The notes under the pieces are model-generated. The model had not been told where the DNA came from and did not search any database. It was given only the letters and a program-made list of their open reading frames with translations. Position numbers and translations under genes: made by a program. Positions 33,032 to 55,002 of a DNA stretch of 64,000 nt are shown here, piece after piece. Each line of letters begins with the position of its first letter. Positions within the stretch are counted from its first letter, which is position 1. The DNA lies in contig JAICUF010000001.1 in NCBI GenBank assembly GCA_025935995.1, positions 22,484-86,483 on the forward strand, read 5' to 3'. The DNA is from Gemmatimonadales bacterium (GTDB lineage Bacteria > Gemmatimonadota > Gemmatimonadetes > Gemmatimonadales > GWC2-71-9).

Positions 33032-34552
33032 ATGCCCTTCCGCATCTCGGCGCTGGTGACCGGAGCGCTCCTGGCCGGCGCGGCGCCGCGGCTGCTCGCG
33101 CAGGCGACCCCGTACGTTCCGCTGGACGACCCCCGTCTCCCGATCTTCGAGCACCTCGTCACCCGCGGCGACGTCGCCGATCCCTCGCCGTTCGTCCGCC
33201 CGTTTCTTCGAGCCGATGCCGTGCGCGCCCTCGCCGCCGCCGACACCGCGCCGGCGACGCCAAGCGGGCGGCTGGTGCATGAGCTCCGGCGCGCGTGGGC
33301 GGCACCGGACACCCTGAGCTGGTACGACGTGGGCGTGCGGGCCGGCGCGCAGGCGTACAGCCACGCGCGGCGCGATCCGCTGCATCCGGCGGGAAAGCGC
33401 GGCGCGAGTCCCTACGGCGAGGCGACGCTCGCGGCCGGCTTCGGCCCGATCGTGCTGGTCTCGCGGCCGGCGATCGAGCCCCGCCTCTCGCGCGACGCCG
33501 ACTGGACCGGGCGGCAGGGGCTCGACGTGACGGCACGGCTCGTCGAGGGATACGCGAGCGTGCAGACGCGGTTCGCGCGGATCAGCTACGGCCAGCTCGA
33601 TCGGAACTGGGGGCCGGTCGGCCTGCCGGGCATTCCGCTCAGCAACATCGGCTACGAGCGCGAAGGCCTCGCGCTCGACCTCGGATCGCGCACCGTGCGG
33701 CTCACCGCCCTCGCCACCGACCTGCACGACGCGCCCGACACCACCGGCGCCATCGCGCACCGGTACTACTTCGTGCACCGTCTGGGCGTCCGCCTCACGC
33801 ACCGCTTCGAGGCCGGACTCTGGGAGAGCATCGTCGTGGCGGGCGTCGGCCGGAACTTCGAGAACCGCTACCGGAATCCGGTCTCCCTCGGCTACCTCAC
33901 GAACACGATCGGTCTCGGCGCCGAAGGCAACAACGAGATGCTCGGCGTCGACCTGCACTGGCGCGCCATCGGGCGCACGCTGCTGGAGGCGCAGCTCGCG
34001 CTCGACGACTACTACTATCAGCGGCGCTACGAGAACCGCGATCGCTACGCGTTCACGCTCGCGGCCTCCGGACCGGCGGGAAGCCGCGCCGCCTGGCGCG
34101 CGTTCTACTCGCAGGTGTCGAGCCTCGCGCTCCGCACGTTCAACCCGACCGAGAATTTCACCGATGGGGGCGTGGGACTCGGCCGGAACTACAGCGACAA
34201 CGACCAGCTCACGCTGACCGTGAGCCTCCCCGCGGGCGTCCACTGGCTGCTCACGCCGGAGCTCACGCTCCTCCGCCAGGGTGAGGGCGCGATCGACGCG
34301 CCGTACCCGGTGTTCGGCTCGGCGGAGCTTCAGTCGACGCCCACGCTGTTCATCGGCACGGTCGAGCGCACCTGGCGCGCGGCGATCGGCATCACGGGCC
34401 GGCAGGGGCCCGTGGATCTGACGGCGAACGCCGGCTTCCATCACGTGGTGAACGCGGGGCACGAGGCGGGGCAGTCGCTCAACCGCTTCGAGGGCCGGCT
34501 CCAGCTCACGATCGGCATCTCCCGCCGCGGCGCGCTCGGCGTGGGGGACTGA
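33032..34552 (+). CDS. Secreted beta-barrel outer-membrane protein, Wzi (capsule assembly)-like, paralog 1
   Basis: 506 aa. Signal peptide MPFRISALVTGALLAGAAPRLLAQA. The rest has alternating beta-strand character and an 'RNWGP' motif reminiscent of Wzi-family barrels. Family assignment is from memory of motifs only. Confidence 0.5.
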   Translation: MPFRISALVTGALLAGAAPRLLAQATPYVPLDDPRLPIFEHLVTRGDVADPSPFVRPFLRADAVRALAAADTAPATPSGRLVHELRRAWAAPDTLSWYDVGVRAGAQAYSHARRDPLHPAGKRGASPYGEATLAAGFGPIVLVSRPAIEPRLSRDADWTGRQGLDVTARLVEGYASVQTRFARISYGQLDRNWGPVGLPGIPLSNIGYEREGLALDLGSRTVRLTALATDLHDAPDTTGAIAHRYYFVHRLGVRLTHRFEAGLWESIVVAGVGRNFENRYRNPVSLGYLTNTIGLGAEGNNEMLGVDLHWRAIGRTLLEAQLALDDYYYQRRYENRDRYAFTLAASGPAGSRAAWRAFYSQVSSLALRTFNPTENFTDGGVGLGRNYSDNDQLTLTVSLPAGVHWLLTPELTLLRQGEGAIDAPYPVFGSAELQSTPTLFIGTVERTWRAAIGITGRQGPVDLTANAGFHHVVNAGHEAGQSLNRFEGRLQLTIGISRRGALGVGD

Positions 34553-36093
34553 TGCGCTGCGCCCGGCCCGCGGCGGCGGCCGCGCTGATGCTCATCGCGG
34601 CGGCGCCCGCGCGCGTGACGGCCCAGGAGCGCGATGCCACCCGCCCCCCCTCGCCGTTCGTCTCGCTCGACGATCCGGAGCTGCCCCTCTTCGAGCATCT
34701 GGTGGCGCGCGGGGACGTGGACGATCCGTCGCCGTTCGTGCGGCCCTTCCGGCGCAGTGACGCCGTCCGCGTGCTCGCCACGGCCGACTCCGCCCATCCG
34801 GGCAACCCCGCGATCGCGCACCTGCTCGGCTACTTCGCCGATCCGGCGGAACGGCAATGGTGGCGCGCCGGTGTTCAGGCAGGCGGCGAGGCCTACACGC
34901 ACGCCCGCCGGGATCCGCTGCGTCCCGCGGGCGCGGGCGACGTGACGGCGTACGGGGAGATCCGGCTCGAGGCGGCGGCGGGACCAGTCGTGGCCGTGAG
35001 CCGGCTCCTCGATCAGCCACGCATCCAGCGCGATCCGGACTGGACCGGCATCCAGCGCGGCGTGCCCAACATCCTCTGCTGCGGCTGGCGGTACCCCGAC
35101 GCCTACCTCGACCTCGTGCTCGGCCCGGCCAGCGTCTTCTACGGCCAGACGGCGCGCAACTGGGGACCATGGGGGATTCCGGGCATCGGCGTGAGCGACG
35201 AAGGCTACCCGCGACCTGAATTCAGCTTCGCGCTTCGCACCCGCGATCTCGGCCTTCAGGCGATCGCGAGCCAGCTGGAGGACCAGGAGGATAGCACCGG
35301 CGCGCTGGTGCACCGCTACTTCTTCGCGCACCGCCTGGACGTGCGCGCCACCCGACGCCTTCAGTTCGGGCTCTGGGAGACGACGGTGATCGCGGGCCAC
35401 GAGCGCGACTTCGATGCGCGCTACCGGAACCCGCTCACCCTTGGTGTTCTCGCGAACCTCTACGGGTTTGCCGATCGGGGAAACATGCTGGTGGGACTCG
35501 ATGCGCGGTGGCGCGCAGCACAGGCACTCGCGGTCGAGCTGCAGGTTGCGCTGGACGACATCGCGAACCGGTCGAGCGCCGAAGGCCATCCGAGCCGGTA
35601 CGCGTTCACCGCCGGGCTCACCGGGGCGCTGGGCCCGCGCGCGGGGTGGCGCGCGCACTACACGCAGGCCTCGAGTCTCGCCTTCCGCACGTTCAATCCG
35701 CAGGAGAACCTGACCGACGCGGGCGTGGGACTGGGCCGGAACGCCGACGACTACGACCAAGTGACGGCGATGCTCACGCTGCCGGTTCGCGGGCGGTGGC
35801 TCCTGAGCCCGGAGCTGACGCTGCTGCGCCAGGGGGAGGGGCGGATCGATGATCCCTATCCCGGAACCCGCGCCGCCCGCCTCGCGACGCCCGCGCTCTT
35901 CATCGGAACCGTGGAGCGGACCTGGCGGGTCGCGCTCGGCCTCAGCGGCCGCGAGGGGCCGCTCCGGATCTCCGCGAGCGGGGGGTATCACCACGTGATG
36001 AATGCGGAGAACCAGGCGGGAGTGCGCGACGACCGCTTCGAGGGACGCGTGCTCGTCACGCTCGGCGCGGAACGATCGGGAGCACTGCGGTAG
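34552..36093 (+). CDS. Secreted beta-barrel outer-membrane protein, Wzi-like, paralog 2 (tandem duplicate)
   Basis: 513 aa. Signal peptide MRCARPAAAAALMLIAAAPARVTAQ. Collinear with paralog 1, for example LDDPELPLFEHLVARGDVDDPSPFVRPF, HRYFFAHRL, TPELTLLRQGEG, LFIGTVERTWR. The start overlaps the paralog-1 stop by 1 nt (TGATG). Confidence 0.5.
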   Translation: MRCARPAAAAALMLIAAAPARVTAQERDATRPPSPFVSLDDPELPLFEHLVARGDVDDPSPFVRPFRRSDAVRVLATADSAHPGNPAIAHLLGYFADPAERQWWRAGVQAGGEAYTHARRDPLRPAGAGDVTAYGEIRLEAAAGPVVAVSRLLDQPRIQRDPDWTGIQRGVPNILCCGWRYPDAYLDLVLGPASVFYGQTARNWGPWGIPGIGVSDEGYPRPEFSFALRTRDLGLQAIASQLEDQEDSTGALVHRYFFAHRLDVRATRRLQFGLWETTVIAGHERDFDARYRNPLTLGVLANLYGFADRGNMLVGLDARWRAAQALAVELQVALDDIANRSSAEGHPSRYAFTAGLTGALGPRAGWRAHYTQASSLAFRTFNPQENLTDAGVGLGRNADDYDQVTAMLTLPVRGRWLLSPELTLLRQGEGRIDDPYPGTRAARLATPALFIGTVERTWRVALGLSGREGPLRISASGGYHHVMNAENQAGVRDDRFEGRVLVTLGAERSGALR

Positions 36094-36100
36094 CGCGGCC

Positions 36101-36129
36101 TTGTCCCGCGACGATGCCTCGCTTAAAAT
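36101..36129 (+). promoter_or_regulatory. Candidate sigma70-type promoter for tRNA-Val (TTGTCC-N17-TAAAAT)
   Basis: -35 TTGTCC at 36101-36106, a 17-nt spacer, and -10 TAAAAT at 36124-36129. This A/T hexamer is conspicuous in a GC-rich background. tRNA position 1 lies 17 nt downstream. Confidence 0.4.
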
Positions 36130-36145
36130 CCCGCTCCCGGCAATC

Positions 36146-36219
36146 GGGCGATTAGCTCAGCTGGTTAGAGCGCGCGCCTCACATGCGCGAGGTCGGGGGT
36201 TCGATCCCCTCATCGCCCA
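36146..36219 (+). tRNA. tRNA-Val (anticodon CAC)
   Basis: Hand-folded cloverleaf: GGGCGAT TA GCTC AGCTGGTTA GAGC G CGCGC CTCACAT GCGCG AGGTC GGGGG TTCGATC CCCTC ATCGCCC A. All four stems pair. CCA is not encoded. Confidence 0.92.
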
Positions 36220-36234
36220 TCGAGCTGAACTGAA

Positions 36235-36260
36235 GCCCCGCACGCACGTGCGGGGCTTTG
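36235..36260. terminator. Intrinsic terminator hairpin after tRNA-Val (possibly bidirectional)
   Basis: GCCCCGCAC-GCAC-GTGCGGGGC is a perfect 9-bp stem, followed by TTTG on the plus strand. It also abuts the stop of the convergent receiver gene at 36261. Confidence 0.65.
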
Positions 36261-36686
36261 TCATGCCGCCCCGCTGAGGCTGGCGGCCGCGGGCCTCAGG
36301 GGCGCATCCGGCTGCGAGCTCGTCAGGGTGCGCACGCAGTCGATGAGCTCCGCCGCCGTGAACGGCTCGGTCAGGGTGGGGATGTCCGAGGGAAGCCCCG
36401 CGTGGCGGTGGGTGTCGATATGCAGGATCGACAACGCGGGATGCCGTGCGCGAACACCGGCGATCAGCGCGACGCTGTTCAGTCCGTCAACGTGCGTGTT
36501 CAGAATCAGGAGCGTGATGTCGGGCAGCTGGGCACAGAGCTCGACCGCGGCCTGGCCATCGTAGGCCTGGAATACCCGGTAGCCTTCCATCCGGAGCACC
36601 CCGGAGACCGAGACGAGGATCGGATTCGAGTCGAGCACGATGATGCGCGCCCCGTTGGGGAGCGCCGCAGAACTCCGGGAAGACAC
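36261..36686 (-). CDS. Stand-alone degenerate (pseudo-)receiver domain protein
   Basis: C-terminal 141 aa of ORF 36261..37616, taken from in-frame GTG 36684-36686. CheY-like fold pattern ARIIVLDSNPIL...ITLLILNTHVDGLN...SILHIDTH...LTEPFTAAEL. The acceptor Asp position reads Asn and the conserved Lys reads Glu. The start codon is uncertain. Confidence 0.65.
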   Translation of the reverse strand: MSSRSSAALPNGARIIVLDSNPILVSVSGVLRMEGYRVFQAYDGQAAVELCAQLPDITLLILNTHVDGLNSVALIAGVRARHPALSILHIDTHRHAGLPSDIPTLTEPFTAAELIDCVRTLTSSQPDAPLRPAAASLSGAA

Positions 36687-36751
36687 GTTGGACCTTGGAT
36701 CCGGCGGGGGACAGCCGGAAGTGGCAATGTAGCGGGACCGCGGAAGGCGAA

Positions 36752-36783
36752 CTGCAGGTGCAGGGGGGCGTCTGCACCTGCAG
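36752..36783. repeat. Perfect 12-bp inverted repeat CTGCAGGTGCAG-N8-CTGCACCTGCAG in the channel/receiver intergenic region
   Basis: Read directly: 36752-36763 is the exact reverse complement of 36772-36783. Confidence 0.85.
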
Positions 36784-36838
36784 GCAATATACCACCTTCC
36801 GGCCCCCCGCGTGCGGCGGGCGACTCCGCCGCCGACGC

Positions 36839-37651
36839 TCAGGCTCCCGCCGTTCCCCGCCCCGCCCCATCCGTCAGCGGCCTGAGCTGATCCCGGAGCG
36901 CCGCGATCTCCTGACGCAACGCCTCGATGCTCTTCTGGCCGGCCACGTCGGCATCGGGGCTGTCCGCGTCGCGGTCCACGAAGAATGATGCGAGCGAGGC
37001 CGTCACGTACCCGAGGATGGTGAACGCGTAGATGGACAGGAGGAGACAGAGCGCCCGCCCCTCGACTGTGCGCGGCCAGTACTCGGATCCCATCGTGGTC
37101 ATGATCATCGCCGTCCACCAGAGCGCCGCGCCGTAGTCGTGGATTCCGCCGCCGGCGACGCCGGACTCGAAGGCGTACATGCCGGCCGCACCGCCGAAGA
37201 TCACGAGCACGGTGAGGATGAGGACGTACGCCAGCCCGCGCCGCCCCATGCTCCGCCGGAGCGCGTTCATCCCCCGGTTGAGTGACCCGATCACCCGGAC
37301 GAGCCGGAAGCCGCGCGCCCCCGCGGCGATCCGCGCCAGACGTGCGACCCGAAGCACGCGCAGGACCCGCAGCGCCGGCACGAGCAGGGAGAGCGCACCG
37401 AGCCAGTTCCGCCTGAGGAACTGGCGCTTGTCGGGCGCGATGGTCAGGCGGATGGCGAAGTCGGCGATGAAGATGACCCAGATGAGGGTCGAGAGCGTCG
37501 CGAGGAGGCCGTTGAGCCCCTTCGTGAGGTCGAGCACGAGGAGCCCGAGCCAGATGAAGCCGAGCACCTGCATCGGCACCTCGAGCCAATCCTCGAGCTC
37601 CGCGAGGAGGGCCCACCGCTCGGGCTGCGCGTCGTTGTTCACGTCCGGCAC
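36839..37651 (-). CDS. Voltage-gated-type tetrameric cation channel subunit (Ion_trans family) with a non-canonical pore signature
   Basis: About 270 aa from GTG 37649-37651. S4-like helix LRVLRVLRVARLARIAAGARGFRLVRV has Arg at every third position. Pore helix and filter read ALWWTAMIMTTMGSEYWP. S6 is LCLLLSIYAFTILGYVTASLASFF. The C-terminal coiled coil is SIEALRQEIAALRDQL. Confidence 0.72.
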   Translation of the reverse strand: MPDVNNDAQPERWALLAELEDWLEVPMQVLGFIWLGLLVLDLTKGLNGLLATLSTLIWVIFIADFAIRLTIAPDKRQFLRRNWLGALSLLVPALRVLRVLRVARLARIAAGARGFRLVRVIGSLNRGMNALRRSMGRRGLAYVLILTVLVIFGGAAGMYAFESGVAGGGIHDYGAALWWTAMIMTTMGSEYWPRTVEGRALCLLLSIYAFTILGYVTASLASFFVDRDADSPDADVAGQKSIEALRQEIAALRDQLRPLTDGAGRGTAGA

Positions 37652-37715
37652 CGTCCGCTCCCTGAAGTTGGTGCTCCAGGCTAGCGGCGGGCCGCGCGTC
37701 ACGGCGTGAGGGCCG

Positions 37716-39620
37716 TCACGGGCGCTGAGGAAGCCGCTGGATCGCGGCGAGCAGGTCGGACGGAGCGAACGGCTTCTGGATGAACGCCTCATCCGCCGGA
37801 AGGAGACCCTGCCGAATGATCTCGTCGTTCGTGTATCCGCTCATGAAGAGCATCGGCACGCCGGGCCAGCGCTCGCGGATCTGGATCGCGAGCTCGCTCC
37901 CGCCCATGCGCGGCATGATCACGTCCGAGACCACCGCGGTGACGCCGCCGTGCAGGCGCTCCATCACCCCGAGCGCCTGGTGCCCGTCGCCGGCAGCCTC
38001 GACGCGGTAGCCCGCCTGCATGAGGCCGCGCTGCAGCAGCGAGGCGACCATCGGCTCGTCCTCGACCAGCAGTATCGTCCCCAGCGCACCCGCCGCCGCC
38101 GGACGGCGCTCGATACGGGGCGGCGTCGGCGCCTCCGGGAGCCGCGGCAGCTGGATGGTGAACGTCGCTCCGCGTCCCGGCTCGCTCGCCGCCCAGATGT
38201 AACCGTCGGACTGCTTTACCATCCCGAACACGGTGGAAAGCCCGAGCCCTGTGCCTTCTCCGACGCCCTTCGTGGTGAAGAACGGCTCGAAGACCCGCTC
38301 GAGCGTGCGCGTATCCATGCCGACACCCGTGTCCTGCACATCGATCTGCACGTACGGACCGCGCCGGATGGCGATCTCCGGATAGCGCCGGGCCGTGGCC
38401 TCATTGAGCTCCACGACCGAAGTCCGGATGGTCAGCGTGCCGCCGTTCGGCATCGCGTCGCGGGCGTTGAGGGCGAGGTTCACGAGCACCTGCTCGAGGC
38501 CCACCGGGTCCACCATCACCCAGTCGCCGGCGGCCGCGGCGTCGACCCGCAGCTCGCGTCCCGCGCCGAGCAGGCGGCCGAGGGTCCCGGCGAGCGACCG
38601 AAGCACCGCCTTCACCTCCGTCGGGCGCGGCTGCATCACCTGCCGCCGGCTGAAGGTGAGGAGTTGCCGCGCCACCTCCGCCGAACGCGCCGCCGCGTGG
38701 TGAATTCCCTCGATCTCGGCGCGGGCCTCCGGGTCCGCCTCGGCGCGCTGGAGCGCGAATTCCGCGTTCGCGAGGATCACGGTCATCATGTTGTTCACTT
38801 CGTGCGCCACGCCACCGGCGAGCCGGCCGGTGGACTCGAGCTGGAGCGCCCGGCGGGCGCGCTCGTCGGCGAGGCGCTCCCGGGTGAGGTCGGTCACGAC
38901 GCAGACCACGTCGCCTCCGCCGTGCCGCTCCGCCGCCATCGGAACGACGCTGAAGCGAAGCCACCGGTCATTGAGCTCGAGTCGGGCCGTGTCCCCCCCA
39001 CCGGGAAGGCGGAGCACCGGCGGCTCGGCGGAGAGCTCGGCACCGGGGATGAGGTCGGCGACGCATGCCGTATCGGCGGCCCCCGCGTCGAGGCCGAGCA
39101 GCTTGAGGAAGGCGCGGTTGTGCCGCGTGATCCGCCCCGCGGCGTCGGCGATGCAGACGCCCTCCCCGATCGCGTCGAAGGCGGCGCTCCAGTCGCGCGC
39201 GAGGGCGTTGGCCTGACGCTCCGCGCCGCGGGCCCGGAGGAGCGCGCGGACACTCGCCACCATCACCGGCGGATCGATCGGATGCGTGAGGTAGCCGTCG
39301 GCGCCGTTGTCGAGGCCGCGTACCTTGCTATCGGCGCCGGTGAAGCTGGCGGAGATGTGCAGAATGGGGATGTCCGCCGTGCGCGGATCCTGCCGGAGCC
39401 GCCGCGTCACCTCGAAGCCGCTGATGTCCGGCAGCCGCACGTCGAGAATGATCAGGTCCGGCTCGTCGGCGACGGCACCGGCCAGCGCGTCCTGGCCGGT
39501 GGCGGCCTCCGTGACCCGGAAGTCGTTCGCCTGCAGGTGGCGGGAGACGGCGTAGCGGTTCGCATCGGTATCGTCGACCACGAGGATGCGGGCGCCGTGA
39601 GTGGGATGCAGATCAGCCAT
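37716..39620 (-). CDS. Hybrid sensor histidine kinase (REC-PAS-HisKA-HATPase-REC)
   Basis: 634 aa. N-terminal REC is RILVVDDTDANR...LIILDVRLPD...ILHISAS. PAS is WSAAFDAIGEGVCIADAAGRITRHNRAF. H-box is GGVAHEVNNMMTVI. HATPase motifs are NLALNARDAM...DTGVGMD...GTGLGLS. C-terminal REC is ILLVEDE...VVSDVIMP...FMSGY...QKPF. Confidence 0.9.
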   Translation of the reverse strand: MADLHPTHGARILVVDDTDANRYAVSRHLQANDFRVTEAATGQDALAGAVADEPDLIILDVRLPDISGFEVTRRLRQDPRTADIPILHISASFTGADSKVRGLDNGADGYLTHPIDPPVMVASVRALLRARGAERQANALARDWSAAFDAIGEGVCIADAAGRITRHNRAFLKLLGLDAGAADTACVADLIPGAELSAEPPVLRLPGGGDTARLELNDRWLRFSVVPMAAERHGGGDVVCVVTDLTRERLADERARRALQLESTGRLAGGVAHEVNNMMTVILANAEFALQRAEADPEARAEIEGIHHAAARSAEVARQLLTFSRRQVMQPRPTEVKAVLRSLAGTLGRLLGAGRELRVDAAAAGDWVMVDPVGLEQVLVNLALNARDAMPNGGTLTIRTSVVELNEATARRYPEIAIRRGPYVQIDVQDTGVGMDTRTLERVFEPFFTTKGVGEGTGLGLSTVFGMVKQSDGYIWAASEPGRGATFTIQLPRLPEAPTPPRIERRPAAAGALGTILLVEDEPMVASLLQRGLMQAGYRVEAAGDGHQALGVMERLHGGVTAVVSDVIMPRMGGSELAIQIRERWPGVPMLFMSGYTNDEIIRQGLLPADEAFIQKPFAPSDLLAAIQRLPQRP

Positions 39621-41001
39621 CGTCGCTCGTGGGGCCGGTCGCGGCCGGTTTGGCGGGAGATTCCTCTTCCGGACACTGCCGCGGGATCCTGAGGATGAAG
39701 GTCGAGCCGATGCCCGGCTCGCTCACCGCGGACAGCGACCCCCCCAGCAGCGCAGCCAGCTTCCGCGAGAGCGGCAGACCGAGGCCCGTGCCAGCGCTGC
39801 GCCGCTGGAGCGGGCTGTCCACCTGGGCGTACTCCTCGAAGATGCGCTCGAGGTCGTCGGGGGCGATGCCGATCCCCGTATCCGCCACGGCCAGGGTCAC
39901 CATGTCCGGCGCCTCGTCGTACGCCGCCGTCACGCGGATCTCGCCGTGCGGCGTGAACCGGATCGCGTTGCTCACGAGATTCCGGAGCACCTGCGACAGC
40001 TTGCCCTCGTCGCTGCACATGCGCCACGGCCAGTCGGGCTGATCCACCGTCAGCGTCACCGCGTCGCCGGTGATCAACGGCCGCGCCATGCCGCGGAGCG
40101 CGCCGAGCAGCTCGGCCACAGTGAACTCGGTCACCCGGAGCACGGTCTTCCCGGCCTCGATCCGCGCGAGATCGAGCAGGTCGTTCACCATGTCACTCAG
40201 GGTGACCGCGGCGCTCTGGATCAGCCGGACCTGATGCTCCTGGCTCGCGGTGAGATCCCCGTCCATGCGGTCCAGCAGCAGGCGCGTGAGGTTCCGGATC
40301 GCGTTGAGCGGCGTCCGGAGCTCGTGGCTTATCCCCGAGAGAAAGTTCGACTTGAGCTCCGAGGCCCGCCCGAGCTGCAGGGCCCGGTCGTCGAGCTCGG
40401 CGTACAGTGCCAGAACGCCGCGATTGGTCTCTGCCAGCTCACCGTTGAGGCGCTCGATCTCGAGCTGCTTCGACCGGAGATCCTCCAGTGCGAGGAGCAG
40501 CTCGCGATTGCGGATCCGGAGTTCGCCCAGTGGATCGGGTGGCGCGGCAGCGGCGATGCTGCGGCCGATCTCCTCGAGGCGCTGGGCGGAGAGCCCGGGA
40601 CATTCGGGCGGCGGCGCCTTCGCGAGGGTCACCGTCGTTCCGCCGTCGCCCGTCGCAAACTCCACGCGGTCCATGAGCCGCCGCGCCGAGAAAATGCCGA
40701 GGCCCGGGCCCGCGGGCGATTGCCAGCGGCCTTCGAGCACCGCCGGGAGATCGGCGATCCCGGGACCCCGATCAGTCACGCGAATGACGCAGGTGCCGTC
40801 AGGGGCCACGGCGTAATGCAGCTCGCCGCCGCCACCGTGCTCACACGCGTTGCGCGCGATCTCGGATACGGCCGCACCGATGCGGACCTGATCCTGGGCT
40901 TCGTATCCCAGCAGGGCAGCGAGCTGGCGAGCCTCCTGGCGGATGCGGACGACGTCCTGGGCATCGCGCATGCTGGTAGAGTGAAGAATGGTTTCGTTCA
41001 T
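39613..41001 (-). CDS. Histidine kinase with an N-terminal RsbT/RsbW-like HATPase module
   Basis: ORF trimmed to ATG 40999-41001, an ATGA overlap with the upstream stop. The N-terminus DVVRIRQEARQLA...RIGAAVSEIARNACEHGGGGE...VTDRGPGI is paralogous to RsbT. A coiled coil follows. HisKA is FLSGISHELRTPLNAI. HATPase motifs are NLVSNAIRFT...DTGIGI...GTGLGLPLS. Confidence 0.85.
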   Translation of the reverse strand: MNETILHSTSMRDAQDVVRIRQEARQLAALLGYEAQDQVRIGAAVSEIARNACEHGGGGELHYAVAPDGTCVIRVTDRGPGIADLPAVLEGRWQSPAGPGLGIFSARRLMDRVEFATGDGGTTVTLAKAPPPECPGLSAQRLEEIGRSIAAAAPPDPLGELRIRNRELLLALEDLRSKQLEIERLNGELAETNRGVLALYAELDDRALQLGRASELKSNFLSGISHELRTPLNAIRNLTRLLLDRMDGDLTASQEHQVRLIQSAAVTLSDMVNDLLDLARIEAGKTVLRVTEFTVAELLGALRGMARPLITGDAVTLTVDQPDWPWRMCSDEGKLSQVLRNLVSNAIRFTPHGEIRVTAAYDEAPDMVTLAVADTGIGIAPDDLERIFEEYAQVDSPLQRRSAGTGLGLPLSRKLAALLGGSLSAVSEPGIGSTFILRIPRQCPEEESPAKPAATGPTSDDG

Positions 41002-42047
41002 GCGGCCCGGCAGACCAGAACCGAGGCGTCGTCGCGTCCCCGGCTGAAGTCGCGATAGAGGAGCCCGGCGACGATGGCGGGGTCGCGGCGCAGGACGCCT
41101 GGATAGCCGTCGGTCTTCCAGTGCGTGGTGAGGCCATCCGATGTCAGCACCAGCTCGGCGCCCACCGGACAGGGGTATGACACTTCCTGAATGCGACCGC
41201 CGTGAAGCCCCACGATCCCGTTCTGGGACACCAGGGTTCTGCTGCCCGCGTCGGAGAGGATGCGTGCCGTGATGTTTCCGACCCCTGCGAACCGAAGCCC
41301 GGTCCCGCCGCCACCGATCTGCGCGACGGCGGCCGCGGCGCCGCGGGTGGACCGAATCCCCTGGTGGAGGCGCTCGAGCAACTCCGCGGGCCCGCGCGCC
41401 AGCGCGGCCTGTTCGGTGAAGATGGCCATGGCAAGGTCCGCCGCTTCCGCGGCGCCGGGACCGTGTCCCAGCCCGTCGACGAGGAGCGCGCTGGTCCCGG
41501 CGTCGTGCTCGACCACCGCCCAGCCGTCGCCGCAGAGCGATTCCCCGGCCACGGGAATGGCAAGCGCGCCGATCACGGGGCCCGCGGCCGGTACACCGCC
41601 GGCCCACACGCGCGCGACCACCGCCGTCCCCTGGCCGGCGGCCGAGAAGATGTCGAACGCATGCGCCACACGCCGCGCCGCGCCGAGGCCGGTCCCCATC
41701 GTGCCGCCGGTGGAAAAGCCGTCCCGAAAGCAGCCGGCCAGATCGCGCATGCCAGGGCCCCGGTCGAGGCAGAGCACCTCGACGCCGCGGGACGGCCCGT
41801 GGCTGAGCGCCCGCAGCACCACCTCCCCGCCCCCGCCGTGCCGCACCACGTTCGTGCCCAGCTCATTGACCACGATGCCCAGCATTCCTATCTCCTCGGA
41901 CCCGAGCCCGAGGCGGGAGGCCAGCGCAGCGGCGGTCCGGCGTGCCTGTCCCACGCCGCTCGGGTCCGCGAGCGACACCACCGTGGACCGCGAGGACGGG
42001 CTGCCGGGGTCCCGGTCAGGACTACCGCCAGCGAACGGCGTCGACAC
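40998..42047 (-). CDS. RsbT/RsbW-like HATPase module fused to a PP2C (SpoIIE/RsbX-type) phosphatase
   Basis: 349 aa. The N-terminus is VGQARRTAAALASRLG...LGIVVNELGTNVVRHGGGGE...LDRGPGM...GTGLGAARR. The C-terminus is GESLCGDGW...LLVDGLGHGPGAAEA...VGNI...LVLTSDGL. The GTG start at 42047 is assumed and overlaps rsbT by 26 nt. The GTG at 41981 is an alternative. Confidence 0.8.
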   Translation of the reverse strand: MSTPFAGGSPDRDPGSPSSRSTVVSLADPSGVGQARRTAAALASRLGLGSEEIGMLGIVVNELGTNVVRHGGGGEVVLRALSHGPSRGVEVLCLDRGPGMRDLAGCFRDGFSTGGTMGTGLGAARRVAHAFDIFSAAGQGTAVVARVWAGGVPAAGPVIGALAIPVAGESLCGDGWAVVEHDAGTSALLVDGLGHGPGAAEAADLAMAIFTEQAALARGPAELLERLHQGIRSTRGAAAAVAQIGGGGTGLRFAGVGNITARILSDAGSRTLVSQNGIVGLHGGRIQEVSYPCPVGAELVLTSDGLTTHWKTDGYPGVLRRDPAIVAGLLYRDFSRGRDDASVLVCRAA

Positions 42048-42426
42048 GCGTGCCCTTCCCCGGCCTGGACTCGATACGGAGGTCGTTCATGAGGCGACGC
42101 GCGCCCCCGAGGCCGAGGCCGAGCCCATGGCCGGTGGTGTAGCCGTCGCGAAGCGCGAGCTCGATATCCGGAATGCCCGGCCCCTCGTCCTCGAACAGCA
42201 TGCGGAGCCCGGTGCGCCCGGGCTCCGTGAGCAGCTCGATGGTGGCCCGCCCGCCACCGCCATAGTCGAGTGTATTGCGCGCGAGCTCGCTCGCGGCCGT
42301 CACGATCCGCGTCTGGTCCACGAGGTTGAATCCGGCCTCCTGGGCCCGTGTGCGCACCAGCTGGCGGACGGCGACGACATCACTCGCGCTTCGGACCGCC
42401 AGCGCATCAGTCCGCTGGACCGGCAT
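42022..42426 (-). CDS. rsbT: Stressosome serine/threonine kinase RsbT
   Basis: 134 aa: VRSASDVVAVRQLVRTRAQEAGFNLVDQTRIVTAASELARNTLDYGGGG...FEDEGPGIPD...GHGLGLGLGGARRLMND. Confidence 0.85.
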   Translation of the reverse strand: MPVQRTDALAVRSASDVVAVRQLVRTRAQEAGFNLVDQTRIVTAASELARNTLDYGGGGRATIELLTEPGRTGLRMLFEDEGPGIPDIELALRDGYTTGHGLGLGLGGARRLMNDLRIESRPGKGTRVDAVRWR

Positions 42427-42826
42427 CCAAGCCCTCGTCCGCGGCGGACGGTTGGTCCAGCTCCCCGGCGGCGTGGAGGACCGCGCGCAGGAGAAGCATG
42501 CCCCGCTCCACGGTCAGCGCGGTGCGGACACCGGGCAGGTCGAGCCCCAGCTCCACCAGCGTGATCGCCACCGCCGGCTGCATCCCCGTCACCACGGTCT
42601 GTGCGTCCAGGATGCGGGCCATGGCGGCGATGTTCGCGATCATCCGGCCGATGAACGAATCGACCATCTCGAGCGCGGAGATGTCGATCAGCACGCCGCG
42701 GGCGCCCGTCTCGGTGATGCGCGCGGTCAGGTCGTCCTGCAGCGCGAGCGCGAGCCGGTCATGCATGTCCACCTGGATCGTGACCAGGAGGAACCGGCCC
42801 ATCTTGAGGATCGGAATGCGCTCCAT
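42407..42826 (-). CDS. rsbS: Stressosome STAS protein RsbS
   Basis: 139 aa: IPILKMGRFLLVTIQVDMHD......GVLIDISALEMVDSFIGRMI...MARILDAQTVVTGMQPAVAITLVELG. The conserved Ser in the VDSF context is present. Confidence 0.85.
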   Translation of the reverse strand: MERIPILKMGRFLLVTIQVDMHDRLALALQDDLTARITETGARGVLIDISALEMVDSFIGRMIANIAAMARILDAQTVVTGMQPAVAITLVELGLDLPGVRTALTVERGMLLLRAVLHAAGELDQPSAADEGLDAGPAD

Positions 42827-42830
42827 GGGT

Positions 42831-43697
42831 TCAGGCCCGCTCGGATCCGGTGGCGCGTCCGAGGGCGTGCCCGGTGCGGCGAAGCGCCAGGCGGAAGGCG
42901 TCGGCCAGGGTGGCCTTCGTATCCACGTTGGTCAGGTCGACGCCAAGATGGACGATCGTGGCCGCAATCTGGGGTCGGATCCCGCTGATGATGCATTCGG
43001 CGCCCATCAACCGCGCGGCGGTGACGGTCTTGATGAGGTGCTGGGCGACGAGGGTGTCCACCGTCGGCACGCCGGTGATGTCGATGATGGCCACCTCCGC
43101 GCCGGTCTGCACGATGCGCTGGAGGAGCGACTCCATGACGACCTGCGTCCGCGCGCTGTCGAGGGTGCCGATCATCGGGAGGGCGAGGATGCCGTCCCAC
43201 AGCTTCACCACGGGCGTCGAGAGCTCGAGCATCTCCTCCTGCTGGCGGGCGATGATGCGCTCGCGTGCCTCGAGAGCCACGGAGGTGGTGTAGAGCGCCA
43301 GCTCGTCGATCAGCGTCGTCATCGACCAGAGCTCGGCGGCGAACCGGGTTGCGTCGCCACTCCGCTGCTGCAGCCGGCCCAGCAGCGCCTGCTTGAGCGA
43401 GAGCACGAACGTCGCCGTGTCAACGGGCGTGAATCCCTGCGCGGCCCGCGAGGAGGAAATCCCCGCCAGGAACTGCCGGACCGCGTGCCACGCGGCCCCG
43501 TCACGAGCTGATCCCGCGTTGACGGCCGCAGCGAGGAGATCGAGAAACTGGCTCGACTGATCCTGCAGCTCGGAGGGCTGCATCAGGTCGGGGCGCGCGG
43601 CGCCGCCGGCCATCTGATCCTGTATCCAGGCCTTGAGGACGTCGCCGCGGTCCTGGTCGAGGACGGTGGCGAGGACGGATGGCTGGCTGGGGGGCAT
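42831..43697 (-). CDS. rsbR: Stressosome sensor RsbR (N-terminal RsbR_N-type sensory domain plus C-terminal STAS)
   Basis: ORF trimmed to ATG 43695-43697 (MPPSQPSVLATVLDQDRGDVLKAWIQ...). The C-terminus ELSTPVVKLWDGILALPMIGTLDSARTQVVMESLL...VAIIDITGVPTVDTLVAQHLIK...GAECIISGIRPQIAATIVHLGVDL aligns almost residue-for-residue with B. subtilis RsbRA as I remember it. Confidence 0.85.
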   Translation of the reverse strand: MPPSQPSVLATVLDQDRGDVLKAWIQDQMAGGAARPDLMQPSELQDQSSQFLDLLAAAVNAGSARDGAAWHAVRQFLAGISSSRAAQGFTPVDTATFVLSLKQALLGRLQQRSGDATRFAAELWSMTTLIDELALYTTSVALEARERIIARQQEEMLELSTPVVKLWDGILALPMIGTLDSARTQVVMESLLQRIVQTGAEVAIIDITGVPTVDTLVAQHLIKTVTAARLMGAECIISGIRPQIAATIVHLGVDLTNVDTKATLADAFRLALRRTGHALGRATGSERA

Positions 43698-43752
43698 GAA
43701 CGCCTCGGAACGTGAACGATGAGGGGGATCGGCGGCGCAAATCGGGAGCGGA

Positions 43753-43781
43753 AAGTTAGGAGGTCCCGATCGAGGCGGCAA
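43753..43781 (-). promoter_or_regulatory. Weak candidate promoter for the rsbR operon (TTGCCG-N17-TAACTT on the minus strand)
   Basis: Hexamers were read on the reverse complement, about 55 nt upstream of the rsbR ATG. This is pattern match only, in a 164-bp region divergent with murB. Confidence 0.25.
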
Positions 43782-43861
43782 CTGCGCCGACGCGGGCTTC
43801 CACCCCTTGGCCCCCGCCCCGCCCCATGCGATTCTAGAGGGCCTTCATCCCGGACCCATCG

Positions 43862-44800
43862 GTGCCGCGAACCGCTTCAGCGCATCTGCCCGGCCTCGAC
43901 CGCTCGCGTCTCGAGCGGAACGTCGCCCTGGCCCCCTACACGACCTTCCGGATCGGCGGTCCGGCGGATCTCTTCTATACGACCACCAGTGCGGACGACC
44001 TCGCCGAGGCCATCCTCGCCGCGCGCGCCGCGGAACTGCCGTTCTTCGTCCTCGGCCTGGGCGCCAACATTCTGGTGGGCGACGGCGGCTTCCGCGGGCT
44101 CGTCATCCGGAATAGCGCCGCACGGCGGGGCTGGGCGGAGGGAGGGATTCTTCGCGCCGAGAGCGGCGCTGTCATGCAGGACCTCGTGCTCGAGTCGGCG
44201 CAGCTCGGCTGGTCTGGACTGGAACACTACATCGGGATCCCGAGCACGGTCGGCGGCGCGATCTGGCAGAACCTGCACTTTCTCTCCCCCGCCCCGGACC
44301 GCGACCGCACCATGTTCATCGCCGACGTCTTCGAGTCGTGCGAGATCCTCTCGGCCGAAGGCGAGCGGACGACCGTCGGCGCCGACTACGTCCGCTTCGG
44401 CTACGACGACAGCGTCTTCCACCACCGCGCCGACTATGTCCTCGGCGCGACCTTCCGCCTCGCGCCGAGCCATCCCGACATCCTGCACAGGATCCATCAG
44501 GAGAATCTGAGCTGGCGCGGCGCGCGTCACCCCTGGCTTGCCATCCATCCGAGCGCGGGATCGATCTTCCGGAAGATCGAGGGCGTCGGCGCCGGACGCC
44601 TGGTGGATCAGTGCGGCCTGAAGGGGGCGACGATCGGCGGCGCGCAGATCTCCCACCTGCACGCCAACATCATCATCAACCTGGGGGGGGCGACCGCCGC
44701 CGACGTGCGCGCCCTCATCGCGCTGGCGCAGCGCGCGGTGGAAGCGAAGTTCGGGCAGCGGCTGGTGCCCGAGATCGGATTCGTCGGCGAGTTCGCCTGA
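43862..44800 (+). CDS. murB: UDP-N-acetylenolpyruvoylglucosamine reductase
   Basis: 312 aa: LAPYTTFRIGGPADLF...FVLGLGANILVGDGGFRGLVI...GIPSTVGGAIWQNLH...PSAGSIFR.......AGRLVDQCGLKG...GGAQIS..HANIIIN. Confidence 0.93.
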   Translation: MPRTASAHLPGLDRSRLERNVALAPYTTFRIGGPADLFYTTTSADDLAEAILAARAAELPFFVLGLGANILVGDGGFRGLVIRNSAARRGWAEGGILRAESGAVMQDLVLESAQLGWSGLEHYIGIPSTVGGAIWQNLHFLSPAPDRDRTMFIADVFESCEILSAEGERTTVGADYVRFGYDDSVFHHRADYVLGATFRLAPSHPDILHRIHQENLSWRGARHPWLAIHPSAGSIFRKIEGVGAGRLVDQCGLKGATIGGAQISHLHANIIINLGGATAADVRALIALAQRAVEAKFGQRLVPEIGFVGEFA

Positions 44801-47800: not shown

Positions 47801-49666
47801 CTACATGAACTTCCGGAGCCACACCTCGAAGCAGAGGAGCGACCAGATGAGGAGCCGGTGGTTCCGGCGCGCGGCGGTGTGCTCGTCGATCACGCCCGCG
47901 ACGAACGCGGGATCGAGGAAGGCGCGGTACCGCGCCTGGGGGCTCGAGAGGAGCCGGCGAATGTAGTCGAGGCTTTCGCCGCGGTACCACGAATCGTACG
48001 GGCCGCTGAAGCCCTGCTTCCGCCGCTCGGCGATCTCCCGCGGAATCAGTCGTCCCATCGCCTTCCGGAGCACCGTCTTCCCCTCGGAGGACTCCCGCCA
48101 GCGCTGCCGCTTCACGATGTCGTCCTCGTCGATCGCCCCCTGCATGAGCGACCCCTCGACCTTGTAGCGGACCGGCACGCGCATGGCGAACTCGACCAGC
48201 CGGTCATCGAGAAAGGGGACGCGGCTCTCGAGCCCGTGGGCCATGCTCACCTTGTCCTCCACCACGAGGAGGCCGTGCAGGAAGGTCTTCGCCTCGAAGT
48301 AGAGGGAATGATTGATGTAGTCCTCGCTCGATGCGAGGGCGATCGGGTGGCGGTCGAAGACGCTCCGGAAGACGTCGAACGTCGAATGCCCCGAGAGGCG
48401 CCGCGCCACGTCGGGGCGGAAGAGCCGGGCCTTGTCCTCGTCGGCCACGAGGCGCTGCCAGAAGGCGTAGTAGTTCCGGAAGTATTCGTCGGCGGAGCGG
48501 CTGCCGGCCACCTGGTAGTAGCGCCAGGGATAGCCGCCGAAGAGCTCGTCGCCGCCGGCGCCGGACAGGACGACCTTCACGAAGCGGCTCGCGAGCCGCG
48601 CCACGTAGTAGTTGGGATACGACTGGCCGACTCTGAGATCCTCGAGGTGCCAGATCAGGTCGCCCATCACCTGCTCCATGTCGCCGGCGTGGAGCACGAC
48701 CTCGTAGTGCTCCGTCTTGAAGCGGTGCGCCATCATCTCCGCCGGCAGCCGCTCGTCGAAGCCGAGCTCGATGCCGGATGCGGAGGTGAGATCGAACCCG
48801 GCGGTGAAGGAGTGGATGCGGCCCAGGTGACTCGACGCGATCGCGGTGAGCGAGCCCGAATCCATCCCGCCGCTCAGGTAGCTCCCGACCGGCACGTCGC
48901 TCACCAGCTGGCGGACGGCCGCACCGCTGAAGCAGCGGAACAGCTCGTCCACGCATTCCTCTTCGGTGATCGCCAGCGGGTCCGAGCCGAACCGGTAGTC
49001 CCAGTATGGCACCGGCGCGCCCACCCGGCCGTTCTCGACCGTCAGCGTATGCCCGGGCTGGAGGAGCCGTACCCCCTCGAAGAGGGTCTCGTCGGTGAAG
49101 ATGTTCTGAAAGGTGAAGTACTGATGCAGCGCCGGCAGCGACACGTCGCGACGGAAGCCCGGCACGGTGAGGAGCGCCTTGATCTCCGACGCGAAGGCGA
49201 AGCGCGTGCCGTCGGTCCAGTAGTAGAGGGGCTTGATGCCGTAGCGGTCGCGCGCGAGGACGAGGCGCCGCGCCGCCGGCTCCCACACGGCGAAGGCGAA
49301 CATGCCGTTGAGCCGGTCGAGCGATGCGGGCCCCCACTCGCGCCAGGCCTCGAGGAGCACTTCGGTGTCGCAGGTGGAGCGGAAGCGGTGGCCGCGCGCG
49401 AGGAGATCGGCCCGGAGCTCCTGGTAGTTGTAGATCTCGCCGTTGTAGACGAGCGCCGCGCCGCCGTCGGGCGCGAGCATGGGCTGGTGGCCGCCGGAGG
49501 AGAGATCGATGATCGCGAGCCGGCGGTGGCCCAGGCCGGCCGAGCCGTCGGTCCAGTGACCTTCGCCGTCGGGGCCGCGATGCGCGATCGCGTCGGTCAT
49601 CCGCTTCAGGGTCTCGCGGGCGACCGGCTCGCCGCGCAGGTGGATCACGCCCGCGAGGCCGCACAT
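47801..49666 (-). CDS. asnB: Asparagine synthase (glutamine-hydrolysing) family amidotransferase, paralog 1
   Basis: ORF trimmed to ATG 49664-49666. Sequence MCGLAGVIHL... (Ntn Cys2)...GHRRLAIIDLSSGGHQPM...VYNGEIYNYQELR...DTEVLL...LNGMFAFAVW...SGGMDSGSL (PP-loop). Confidence 0.9.
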   Translation of the reverse strand: MCGLAGVIHLRGEPVARETLKRMTDAIAHRGPDGEGHWTDGSAGLGHRRLAIIDLSSGGHQPMLAPDGGAALVYNGEIYNYQELRADLLARGHRFRSTCDTEVLLEAWREWGPASLDRLNGMFAFAVWEPAARRLVLARDRYGIKPLYYWTDGTRFAFASEIKALLTVPGFRRDVSLPALHQYFTFQNIFTDETLFEGVRLLQPGHTLTVENGRVGAPVPYWDYRFGSDPLAITEEECVDELFRCFSGAAVRQLVSDVPVGSYLSGGMDSGSLTAIASSHLGRIHSFTAGFDLTSASGIELGFDERLPAEMMAHRFKTEHYEVVLHAGDMEQVMGDLIWHLEDLRVGQSYPNYYVARLASRFVKVVLSGAGGDELFGGYPWRYYQVAGSRSADEYFRNYYAFWQRLVADEDKARLFRPDVARRLSGHSTFDVFRSVFDRHPIALASSEDYINHSLYFEAKTFLHGLLVVEDKVSMAHGLESRVPFLDDRLVEFAMRVPVRYKVEGSLMQGAIDEDDIVKRQRWRESSEGKTVLRKAMGRLIPREIAERRKQGFSGPYDSWYRGESLDYIRRLLSSPQARYRAFLDPAFVAGVIDEHTAARRNHRLLIWSLLCFEVWLRKFM

Positions 49667-50670
49667 CAGCCGGTGCGGGCCTCGGCGGCGCGGATGCGCG
49701 ACGCCACCGCCTCCTTGTGCCCCTCGCGCCAGGCGATGAGCCGGCGAAGGCCTTCTTCCACGGGCGTCCGCGCCCGGAACCCGAGATCGCGCGCCGCCGC
49801 CTCGGTGAACCCCACGCGGCGCGTCACGAAGGTCTGGCCGGCGGGCTCGTAGCGGATCCCCAGGTGCTCGCTGCCCGTGAGCCGGAGCAGCATCTCGCAG
49901 ATTTCCCGGATCGTGGTCTCGACGCCGGCGCCGACGTTGTAGCACCGGTCGGTGGCGTCGGAGCCTGCGGCCAGCACGTTGCAGTCGGCCGCGTCCTCGA
50001 CGTAGATGAAGTCGTACGACTGCGTGCCGTCGCCGTAGACGATGGGCGGCTCGCCCCGGTCGATCCGATCGAGGATCTTCATCACGACGGCGACGTACGC
50101 GCCCATGTAGTCCTGCCGCGGCCCGTAGATGTTCATGTAGCGGAGGCCGACGTAGTCGAGGCCGTAGCGGTGGTGGTAGGCACGCGCCATGTGCTCGCCG
50201 GCGATCTTGGTGGCGCCGTAGAACGTGCGGTTGTTGTACGGGTGGTCCTCCGTCATCGGCACTTCGAGCGCGTCCCCGTAGACCGAGGCGGAGGACGAGT
50301 ACACGAGCTTCCGCACGCCCCGGAGCCGGCAGGCCTCGAGCACGTTGAAGGTGCCGCGGATGTTCACCTCGAAGGCCGACTGCGGATACTCGTGGCAGTG
50401 GAGCAGCCAGAGCGCCGCGAGGTGGAACACGACGTCGGTCTTCTCCAGCGCCTTCTGGAGGATGTCGGTGTGCAGGATATCGCCGCCCAGCTCGAAGACC
50501 CGCACGCGCGGGTCCTGGAGCGCGGCGTCGAGGTTGCCGATCGTCCCCCGCGTGAAGTTGTCGTAGACGACGATCTCGGCGACGTCCTCCCGGGTCAGCC
50601 GGTCCACGACGTGCGACCCGATGAGGCCCGCCCCGCCCACCACCACCACCCGCGCGCCACGCAGATCCAT
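49666..50670 (-). CDS. NAD-dependent sugar-nucleotide epimerase/dehydratase (extended SDR)
   Basis: 334 aa: VVVVGGAGLIGSH...VFHLAA...SSSASVYG...YGATKIAGE (YxxxK)...RYMNIYGPRQ. Confidence 0.85.
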   Translation of the reverse strand: MDLRGARVVVVGGAGLIGSHVVDRLTREDVAEIVVYDNFTRGTIGNLDAALQDPRVRVFELGGDILHTDILQKALEKTDVVFHLAALWLLHCHEYPQSAFEVNIRGTFNVLEACRLRGVRKLVYSSSASVYGDALEVPMTEDHPYNNRTFYGATKIAGEHMARAYHHRYGLDYVGLRYMNIYGPRQDYMGAYVAVVMKILDRIDRGEPPIVYGDGTQSYDFIYVEDAADCNVLAAGSDATDRCYNVGAGVETTIREICEMLLRLTGSEHLGIRYEPAGQTFVTRRVGFTEAAARDLGFRARTPVEEGLRRLIAWREGHKEAVASRIRAAEARTG

Positions 50671-50686
50671 GTGTCTCCCCGGTCGG

Positions 50687-52940: not shown

Positions 52941-53515
52941 GGTGCGTCCGCGTAGATGAGGGAGACGTCGGCGCCGCTCACTTCGACGCGACCGACCACC
53001 CGGCAGGGCGTGCCGTAGGCGATGGCGTAGTCGGGCAGGTCGCGGTTCACGAGCGAGTGGGCGCCGACGAGGCAATGCCGCCCGATGCTCACGCCGCTCG
53101 TCACGATGCTGCACGGGCCGAGGTAGCAGTGGTCGCCGATCACGACCGGGGCGCGGTCGTACGGCGCGCGGCCGCCCGACAACGCCCAGCGCACCGAATC
53201 GTGGGTGTAGATCTGCACACCGGCCGAGATGCTGCACGTCGCGCCGATCCGGAGGCCGCCGGAGCCGTCCAGCACGGTGCCCGGTCCGATCCAGGTTCCC
53301 TCGCCAACCTCGACATCGCCGAGCACGAGCGACTGGTCGTAGATGCTGCTGCCGGGGCCGAAGCCCAGGTCGCGCGCCCGCTCCCATCGGTCCACGACGT
53401 AATCGGCGAGCGGAAGCGACCGCTGCCACCGCTCGCGTACTTCGACCGAGCGCGCGGCGTGCAGGGCGCGCAACGCGGTGAGGAGGTCCTGCGGCGCGCC
53501 GCCGGCCGGCGTCAC
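52937..53515 (-). CDS. Left-handed beta-helix (hexapeptide-repeat) acetyltransferase
   Basis: 192 aa from GTG 53513-53515, a GTGA overlap with the wzx stop. Hexapeptide repeats are VGEGTWIGPGTVLDG..LRIGATCSISAGVQIY...VVIGDHCYLGPCSIVTSGVSIGRHCLVGAHSLV. Confidence 0.8.
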   Translation of the reverse strand: MTPAGGAPQDLLTALRALHAARSVEVRERWQRSLPLADYVVDRWERARDLGFGPGSSIYDQSLVLGDVEVGEGTWIGPGTVLDGSGGLRIGATCSISAGVQIYTHDSVRWALSGGRAPYDRAPVVIGDHCYLGPCSIVTSGVSIGRHCLVGAHSLVNRDLPDYAIAYGTPCRVVGRVEVSGADVSLIYADAP

Positions 53516-54969: not shown

Positions 54970-55002
54970 GGCGACAAGTCTAAGCGCGGCCCGGGCCGGT
55001 CG

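Follow-up and report, generated by a model that had tools for sequence, protein, structure and literature searches.

A stressosome-type RsbR-RsbS-RsbT operon with a likely two-component output in a Gemmatimonadales bacterium

Introduction

Stressosome modules of the rsbRSTX type that lack sigB and are followed by two-component, cyclic di-GMP or PP2C outputs are known in many phyla (PMC9237108, PMC4976288). The locus described here lies on the minus strand at 36261-43697 of a 64,000-nucleotide stretch (hereafter the window) from a Gemmatimonadales bacterium (GenBank assembly GCA_025935995.1, contig JAICUF010000001.1, positions 22,484 to 86,483), and encodes RsbR-, RsbS- and RsbT-type proteins followed by a phosphatase, two histidine kinases, a voltage-gated-type channel and a degenerate receiver. 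Because sigB-less modules with such outputs have been described so widely, the class of module is already known, as an earlier note on this DNA, made from the letters alone, had rightly said of an RsbRST core with a two-component output. The explanation that best accounts for the observations taken together, and that is considered likely, is a six-gene RsbR-RsbS-RsbT-RsbX stressosome operon with a two-component output, the channel and the pseudo-receiver (pREC) lying outside the unit.

The rsbRSTX modules of Vibrio vulnificus, Vibrio brasiliensis and Moorella thermoacetica are similar. According to PMC9237108 and the survey of Pane-Farre et al. 2005 as cited in it, RsbR, RsbS and RsbT are followed there by an RsbX-type PP2C phosphatase and then by two-component proteins whose genes are spaced by a few bases or overlap. 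Like the operon in the window, these modules have no sigB, rsbU, rsbV or rsbW. The sensor domain in the window is RsbRD_N and not a globin. The phosphatase of the RsbX type carries an N-terminal RsbT-like kinase domain, whereas those of the Vibrio-type modules are described as single-domain proteins (PMC9237108). The first output kinase also bears an RsbT-like domain, where some other systems have RsbU_N or none, and unlike those modules the operon has no GGDEF output.

The nearest analogue of the phosphatase fusion, here termed KinPP2C, is SypE of Vibrio fischeri, which according to PMC3999984 combines an RsbW-like kinase and a PP2C phosphatase in one polypeptide and acts on the STAS protein SypA. 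The two are alike in being encoded beside STAS-domain substrates and differ in that the phosphatase of KinPP2C is closest to RsbX and to Moorella MtX. SypE also carries a receiver domain at its centre, and it works with one RsbV-like STAS protein and not with a stressosome. When the sigma-B stressosome of B. subtilis and Listeria (rsbRSTUVW-sigB-rsbX) is compared, RsbR, RsbS and RsbT are homologous and the equivalents of S59, T205 and T237 are kept, that of T171 being a Ser in the window. In contrast to that system, the operon has no RsbU, RsbV, RsbW or SigB, and its output appears to run through histidine kinases. A literature search, whose scope did not extend to the survey of Pane-Farre et al. 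(2005), found no paper on Gemmatimonadota stressosomes.

Organization of the locus

The GC content of the window is about 72%. The listing of open reading frames (ORFs) gives eight between 36261 and 43697, all on the minus strand, and for each of them coding is backed by frame plots of GC at third codon positions (GC3). In the order of the genes they are:

42831..43697, minus strand: RsbR-type co-antagonist, RsbRD_N sensor domain and STAS domain (Pfam, phmmer)
42407..42826, minus strand: RsbS-type single-STAS scaffold protein (Pfam STAS, phmmer)
42022..42426, minus strand: RsbT-type GHKL serine kinase, 134 aa (Pfam HATPase_c / HATPase_c_2)
40998..42047, minus strand: KinPP2C, RsbT-like kinase domain fused to an RsbX-type PP2C (Pfam HATPase_c_2 and SpoIIE)
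39613..41001, minus strand: KinHK, RsbT-like domain, coiled coil and HisKA-HATPase_c (Pfam HATPase_c_2, HisKA and HATPase_c)
37716..39620, minus strand: HybHK, hybrid kinase, last gene of the six-gene operon (Pfam REC-PAS-HisKA-HATPase_c-REC)
36839..37651, minus strand: six-transmembrane voltage-gated-type channel (Pfam Ion_trans)
36261..36686, minus strand: pREC, stand-alone pseudo-receiver lacking the acceptor Asp (Pfam Response_reg below cut-off; AlphaFold2, Foldseek)

The eight co-directional genes and the domains that the earlier note gave them are borne out by the ORF calls, the GC3 plots and Pfam, which also confirms its HATPase::PP2C, HATPase::HisKA-HATPase and REC-PAS-HK-REC architectures. 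From RsbR to HybHK the coordinates give a 4-nt gap followed by overlaps of 20, 26, 4 and 8 nt. These are the junctions from which one tightly linked operon of genes 1-6 had been proposed, and the same six-gene order recurs in other lineages. The channel gene follows HybHK after 64 nt, and pREC follows the channel after 152 nt.

RsbR, RsbS and RsbT

RsbR scores 79 bits (4e-22) with RsbRD_N and 54 bits (2e-14) with STAS in Pfam, and in phmmer it matches Vibrio RsbR (7o0i_B, 4e-34) and Listeria RsbR (7.5e-32) over nearly its full length. RsbS has a Pfam STAS match of 33.5 bits and phmmer matches ranging from 4e-31 to 2e-26, with Listeria 6qcm_A (4e-31), B. subtilis 6jhk (2e-30) and Moorella MtS (2vy9) among them. 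RsbT, whose gene directly follows rsbS with a 20-nt overlap, scores 49 bits with HATPase_c and 34.5 bits with HATPase_c_2 and has the N, G1 and G2 boxes in the motif alignment; its nearest relative of solved structure is SpoIIAB, at only 2e-5. The profile searches that the earlier note had asked for, with phmmer for RsbR and RsbS, thus uphold all three assignments.

The phosphorylation sites of RsbR and RsbS in Listeria and B. subtilis, including S56 of RsbS, are named in PMC9237128. The Ser of the 'VDSF' motif, which had been read as conserved in RsbS, is indeed kept, and S57 ('MVDSFI') aligns with S56 of Listeria ('FIDSFI') and S59 of B. subtilis ('MIDSFI'). In RsbR, aligned to the Listeria numbering and the sites of PMC9237128, T215 of 'GVPTVDT' corresponds to Listeria T209 and B. 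subtilis T205, and T247 of 'PQIAATIV' to Listeria T241 and B. subtilis T237. Both threonine contexts highlighted in the earlier note are therefore conserved, while the second is the more recently described site and not the classical T171 of B. subtilis. The position of the latter (Listeria T175) is occupied by Ser181 ('GTLDSAR'), which would still be a phosphorylatable residue.

The features that mark a module of this kind are found together at the locus: an RsbR with sensor and STAS domains, the RsbS Ser, the RsbR sites, rsbT after rsbS and an RsbX-type PP2C next to rsbT. Neither rsbU-rsbV-rsbW-sigB nor any sigma gene adjoins them. Genes 1-6 had been predicted to encode a module of the stressosome type (RsbR-RsbS-RsbT) with a PP2C phosphatase and an output through two-component proteins instead of sigma-B, and the sequence supports this.

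The RsbT-like fusion proteins and the hybrid kinase

Moorella MtX (3zt9, 5e-13) is the nearest match to the phosphatase half of KinPP2C, followed by B. subtilis RsbX (3w40, 2.5e-6), and on these matches the phosphatase is assigned to the RsbX type. KinPP2C and KinHK each begin with a paralogue of RsbT in which, by the alignment, the N box (E..N), GGGG stretch, G1 (DxGPG) and G2 are retained. Counting free RsbT, KinPP2C and KinHK, the locus encodes three kinase domains of the RsbT type whose ATP-binding motifs are intact. KinPP2C is presumed to be the feedback phosphatase and KinHK the first output kinase. KinHK has at least 7999 homologues, and its three-domain core is present in 120 of the 120 homologues listed, three of which carry a C-terminal receiver in addition. 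In the homologue alignment N51, D77/G79/G81 and H226 are invariant and the H-box is the canonical SHELRTP. The homologues of KinHK and of the channel that come with source names are all from Gemmatimonadota/Gemmatimonadales. The remaining interest of the locus is in the three RsbT-type domains of its core, not in the channel: so widespread a fusion of RsbT-like domains to a phosphatase and to an output kinase provides a testable hypothesis for the link between RsbT and output.

The H-box of HybHK (AHEVNN) is canonical too, as is its C-terminal receiver, and in the related loci L081, L085, L174 and L176 an orthologue with 62-91% identity comes directly after the KinHK gene. In the N-terminal receiver of HybHK an invariant His ('GYLTHP') takes the place of the usual conserved Lys in each of the five orthologues that were compared; its acceptor Asp and Ser are retained.

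Conservation of the six-gene unit

The census of neighbourhoods rests on contig look-ups of homologues and on a metagenome scan. Through look-ups of KinHK homologues, four Gemmatimonadota lineages outside the clade of the window were found with sequence past HybHK. They have the same six-gene order in different neighbourhoods, and each cluster stops after HybHK:

L081: KinHK 65% identical; tRNA-Val 50 nt after HybHK, then, as in the window, a convergent pair of 510/507-aa paralogues, asparaginase II, CMD, Obg and DprA
L174/L175: KinHK 67% identical; all six genes present, with an 83-aa ORF and unrelated genes beyond them
L176/L177: KinHK 64% identical; all six genes present, with a convergent hydrolase gene beyond them
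JGI 3300043331: KinHK 60% identical; all six genes present, with a convergent HhH-GPD gene beyond them

L081 is syntenic with the window on both sides; its contig begins inside KinPP2C, and the comparison covers the 3' part of KinPP2C, KinHK and HybHK (61-73%). Orthology of all six genes in L174-L177 is seen in tblastn (51-89% identity). A five-gene version, RsbR-S-T-KinPP2C-KinHK, is present in L001 (an unclassified metagenome-assembled genome, MAG), L002 (an actinobacterial Trebonia MAG) and L003 (a Gemmatimonadaceae MAG); a receiver-containing gene comes next in L001 and L002, and none was detected after the five genes in L003.

Among the relatives, the complete eight-gene arrangement was seen in L085/L086 alone, with identities of 93% for the channel and 80% for pREC. 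L087, a short contig, holds the channel-pREC pair only, and L092 has HybHK and the channel (89%) without pREC. Both genes are absent from every more distant module locus sequenced past HybHK, L081 included, and tblastn with the channel and pREC gave no match in L081, L174-L177 or JGI 3300043331. The earlier note had made the channel and the receiver part of the signalling system and had itself proposed that their absence from beside the block in relatives would speak against this. Since they are not conserved there, neighbourhood conservation of the eight-gene block having failed outside near-identical relatives, that part of its proposal is not supported. The conserved unit, together with the mechanism proposed below, is probably the six genes at 37716-43697, with the channel and pREC as recent additions of a narrow lineage.

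The channel

The channel scores 40 bits with Ion_trans against a cut-off of 25 and has an S4 repeat with Arg at every third position, LRVLRVLRVARLARI, read in the sequence and in the family alignment, in keeping with its first identification as an S4-bearing ion channel. It is about 270 aa long, with S4, pore loop and a C-terminal coiled coil. The pore motif is WWTAMIMTTMGSEYWP, with a TTMGSEYWP core, and most positions, including T185, T186, G188, Y191, W192 and P193, are identical in 14 homologues of 58-93% identity. The canonical K+ filter T-V-G-Y-G is absent from this pore. We take the motif to be neither the K+ signature TVGYG nor the TLESW signature of bacterial voltage-gated sodium channels (BacNaV), and presumably it is a kind of hybrid that opens with 'TTxG' as in K+ channels, contains an 'E-x-W' resembling that of BacNaV and has no GYG. 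The protein shares its size class, S4, pore loop and Ion_trans domain with KvAP and NaChBac-like six-transmembrane prokaryotic channels and differs from them in the pore motif.

The family is large in Gemmatimonadota (4041 matches at E<=1e-5). Of 80 channel-homologue loci in the metagenome scan, L092 alone (channel 89% identical) has an HybHK orthologue upstream; the other 79 (49-63% identity), 47 of which have at least 1 kb of upstream sequence, gave no match to RsbR, RsbS, RsbT or KinPP2C. Four channel-homologue loci looked up separately are also without the module. Three contexts illustrate the variety:

L088: Na/H exchanger, TrkA_N and MscS
L089: DLH hydrolase and Ser/Thr kinase (Pkinase)
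L178 (68% identity, the closest homologue outside the clade of those looked up): CLC channel and HPP

In Gemmatimonadota the family to which the channel belongs is ubiquitous and as a rule not linked to signalling operons. Unrelated generic histidine kinases lie near the channel in L157, L164 and L145/146, cases too few to be meaningful. Because the identity of the channel to its homologues outside the clade (66-68%) resembles that of the core genes between lineages (62-73%), it would seem to be a native gene that was relocated, rather than foreign DNA.

The pseudo-receiver

The description of pREC as a degenerate receiver is confirmed. Its Response_reg score of 21.3 bits is below the Pfam cut-off of 30.2. 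In the alignment the acceptor Asp is replaced by Asn, the Thr/Ser by Asp and the Lys by Glu. The AlphaFold2 model has a (beta-alpha)5 topology (predicted local distance difference test 78, predicted template modelling score 0.73), and its Foldseek matches are CheY-like receivers with probability 1.00 and template modelling scores of about 0.7 by the query and about 0.8 by single-domain targets. As modelled, pREC is a genuine acceptor-less receiver with a CheY-like fold. It resembles other Asp-less or atypical receivers in the replacement of the acceptor Asp within such a fold and differs in being a stand-alone domain of about 110-140 aa.

A word-indexed search of 5.8 billion proteins returned 7 close homologues. 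The wider family (P0248-P0279 among its relatives) comprises, at E<=1e-10 in an exhaustive HMMER search, about 80 clusters at 50% identity of small, stand-alone, unannotated proteins. Asn stands at the acceptor position in all six close homologues and, within an 'LNT' that replaces the acceptor Asp, in 14 of the 15 wider-family sequences aligned, and 'LHIG' replaces the Thr/Ser motif in the aligned members. The ratio of nonsynonymous to synonymous substitution rates (dN/dS) between the window and L085 is 0.19, and hence pREC is taken to be a real gene; decay to a pseudogene was considered and rejected on this value and on the retention of the same Asn in the wider family. Beside the relatives of pREC at about 62% identity, which were found in L172 and L173, lies neither a channel gene nor a kinase gene.

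The end of the operon and the tRNA-Val site

Three features mark the region beyond HybHK:

36752..36783, minus strand: perfect 12-bp hairpin with an 8-nt loop in the channel-pREC spacer, with one compensatory stem change relative to L085 (sequence)
36233..36258, unstranded: GC-rich hairpin separating pREC (stop codon) from tRNA-Val (3' end) (sequence; equivalents in L085, L092 and L081)
36146..36219, plus strand: tRNA-Val(CAC), convergent on the operon end (ARAGORN; Rfam tRNA, 67 bits)

The hairpin at 36233-36258 is likely to be a bidirectional terminator that closes the operon. A sub-threshold Rfam match to the Acido-Lenti-1 small RNA over the full model length (36236-36281, plus strand; 32.8 bits against a gathering threshold of 37, E = 1.5e-4) is probably merely this hairpin, and Rfam found nothing else over the locus besides the tRNA.

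The equivalent hairpin and tRNA stand after HybHK in L081, after the channel (and an insert) in L092, and after pREC in both L085 and the window. The 670-nt insert of L092 is bracketed by a 42-nt direct repeat (1176-1217 and 1846-1887) of the 3' half of tRNA-Val, an arrangement which by its sequence would be an attachment-site-like footprint of integration at this tRNA. Because the hairpin and tRNA follow different last genes, and because of the repeat at the L092 insert, genes appear to have come and gone in the gap between operon end and tRNA-Val. The channel and pREC apparently arrived there one at a time.

A scan for promoters and terminators on the minus strand over 35900-44100 found none, which is uninformative in a phylum of 70% GC whose promoter consensus may differ. 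In the channel-pREC spacer, which as a whole (152 nt) folds with z = -3.97, the AT-rich TGGTATATT (36786-36794) lies ahead of the 12-bp hairpin. This element is a possible extended -10, and the hairpin may form part of a 5' leader or serve as a terminator. These features are compatible with separate control of pREC and are no proof of it.

Proposed mechanism and alternative explanations

In the proposed mechanism, the STAS domains of RsbR and RsbS would build a scaffold that holds RsbT, and a signal sensed by RsbRD_N would lead RsbT to phosphorylate RsbS and RsbR, which KinPP2C would reset in an RsbX-like and SypE-like manner. KinHK, whose RsbT-like N-terminal domain would place it under control at or by the STAS scaffold, would then autophosphorylate and pass the phosphate to one of the HybHK receivers. 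HybHK would in turn integrate a second input through its PAS domain and relay the signal onward to a partner encoded outside the locus. The core may also depart from those of Bacillus and Vibrio, in that KinPP2C and KinHK dock on the RsbR/RsbS scaffold, and perhaps phosphorylate it, instead of being activated by released RsbT, which would make a stressosome-tethered two-component kinase. This last proposal is tentative and is held with low confidence, as is its weaker addition that in this one lineage the channel has joined the transcript, so that the expression of channel and stressosome would be coupled.

Several observations weigh against the six-gene reading. In Vibrio the interaction of RsbT with the output kinase could not be shown (PMC9237108). 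The sample is small, with four lineages outside the clade that have sequence beyond HybHK, and the scan of genome contigs with the KinHK alignment, which keyed on the generic HisKA peptide [ST]HELRTPLN, found the module in 3 of at least 80 loci (L001-L003). The channel is 93% identical in the clade of the window with a dN/dS of 0.075 (against L085). The 64-nt spacer between HybHK and the channel holds no convincing terminator or promoter. Since this spacer is conserved, has a GGAG ribosome-binding site before the GTG start and is modestly structured (z = -2.8), read-through into the channel is plausible, and co-transcription of the channel and a lineage-specific functional link are possible.

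A first alternative is the reading in which all eight genes form one system, with the channel as membrane-potential input or output and pREC as a connector or kinase decoy. The genes share a strand with short spacers (64 and 152 nt) and no strong terminator between HybHK and the channel, both the channel and pREC are under purifying selection, the arrangement is kept in L085-L087, and the best matches of pREC outside its own family are to the C-terminal receiver of HybHK (26-28% identity). However, the linkage is confined to relatives with at least 89% channel identity and is missing in four other lineages that bear the module, one of them fully syntenic, while L092 has the channel without pREC and the homologues of both genes sit in unrelated contexts. 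The strong conserved hairpin and the -10-like element in the channel-pREC spacer also hint at separate expression. An eight-gene system is accordingly judged unlikely, and a channel and dead receiver wired to the stressosome are unsupported as a conserved system.

A further alternative is a sigma-type route. The earlier note had stated that the window holds no sigma factor and no anti-sigma pair. The first part stands, no Sigma70-family match being found in the 61 called and scanned ORFs of the window, while the second does not, as an RsbV/RsbW-like pair and a GAF-PP2C phosphatase are encoded at 13079-15465:

15130-15465, minus strand: STAS anti-sigma antagonist, 111 aa (TIGR00377, 68 bits, above cut-off)
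14656-15120, minus strand: RsbW-like HATPase_c_2 protein, 154 aa
13079-14641, minus strand: GAF-PP2C phosphatase, 520 aa

Released RsbT or KinPP2C could act on this trio, which would control a sigma factor encoded elsewhere, and in some species partner-switching pairs are indeed encoded apart from their sigma factor (PMC3999984). However, the trio, flanked by pta and ksgA-like genes and with no sigma gene beside it, is about 21 kb away from the end of the locus, and housekeeping genes (HrcA, DnaJ, MutS2, DnaG and RecJ among them) intervene. Its phosphatase has a GAF domain and not RsbU_N, the window has no sigma factor, and the conserved neighbours of the module are the two kinases of the operon, so that such a route is very unlikely. 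That the channel and pREC are passengers on a small integrative element at tRNA-Val, as their place between the operon end and the tRNA 3' end and the repeat-flanked insert of L092 at the same place might suggest, is so improbable that it was rejected: in the window neither gene is surrounded by a tRNA-derived repeat, there is no integrase, GC and GC3 are host-like, the divergence of the channel matches that of the core genes, and the L092 repeat is downstream of the channel, which places the channel outside that insert.

Other genes in the window

Beyond the tRNA, two tandem paralogues on the plus strand (33032-34552 and 34552-36093; 506 and 513 aa, about 50% identical) are kept in all syntenic relatives. 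One of them has a weak match to Wzi (capsule assembly); otherwise the pair has no Pfam match. On the other side of the locus, a polysaccharide-biosynthesis cluster at 47801-63998 includes three asparagine-synthase paralogues (47801-49666, 60253-62163 and 62163-63998) together with DegT aminotransferase, epimerase, flippase, Wzz and glycosyltransferase genes.

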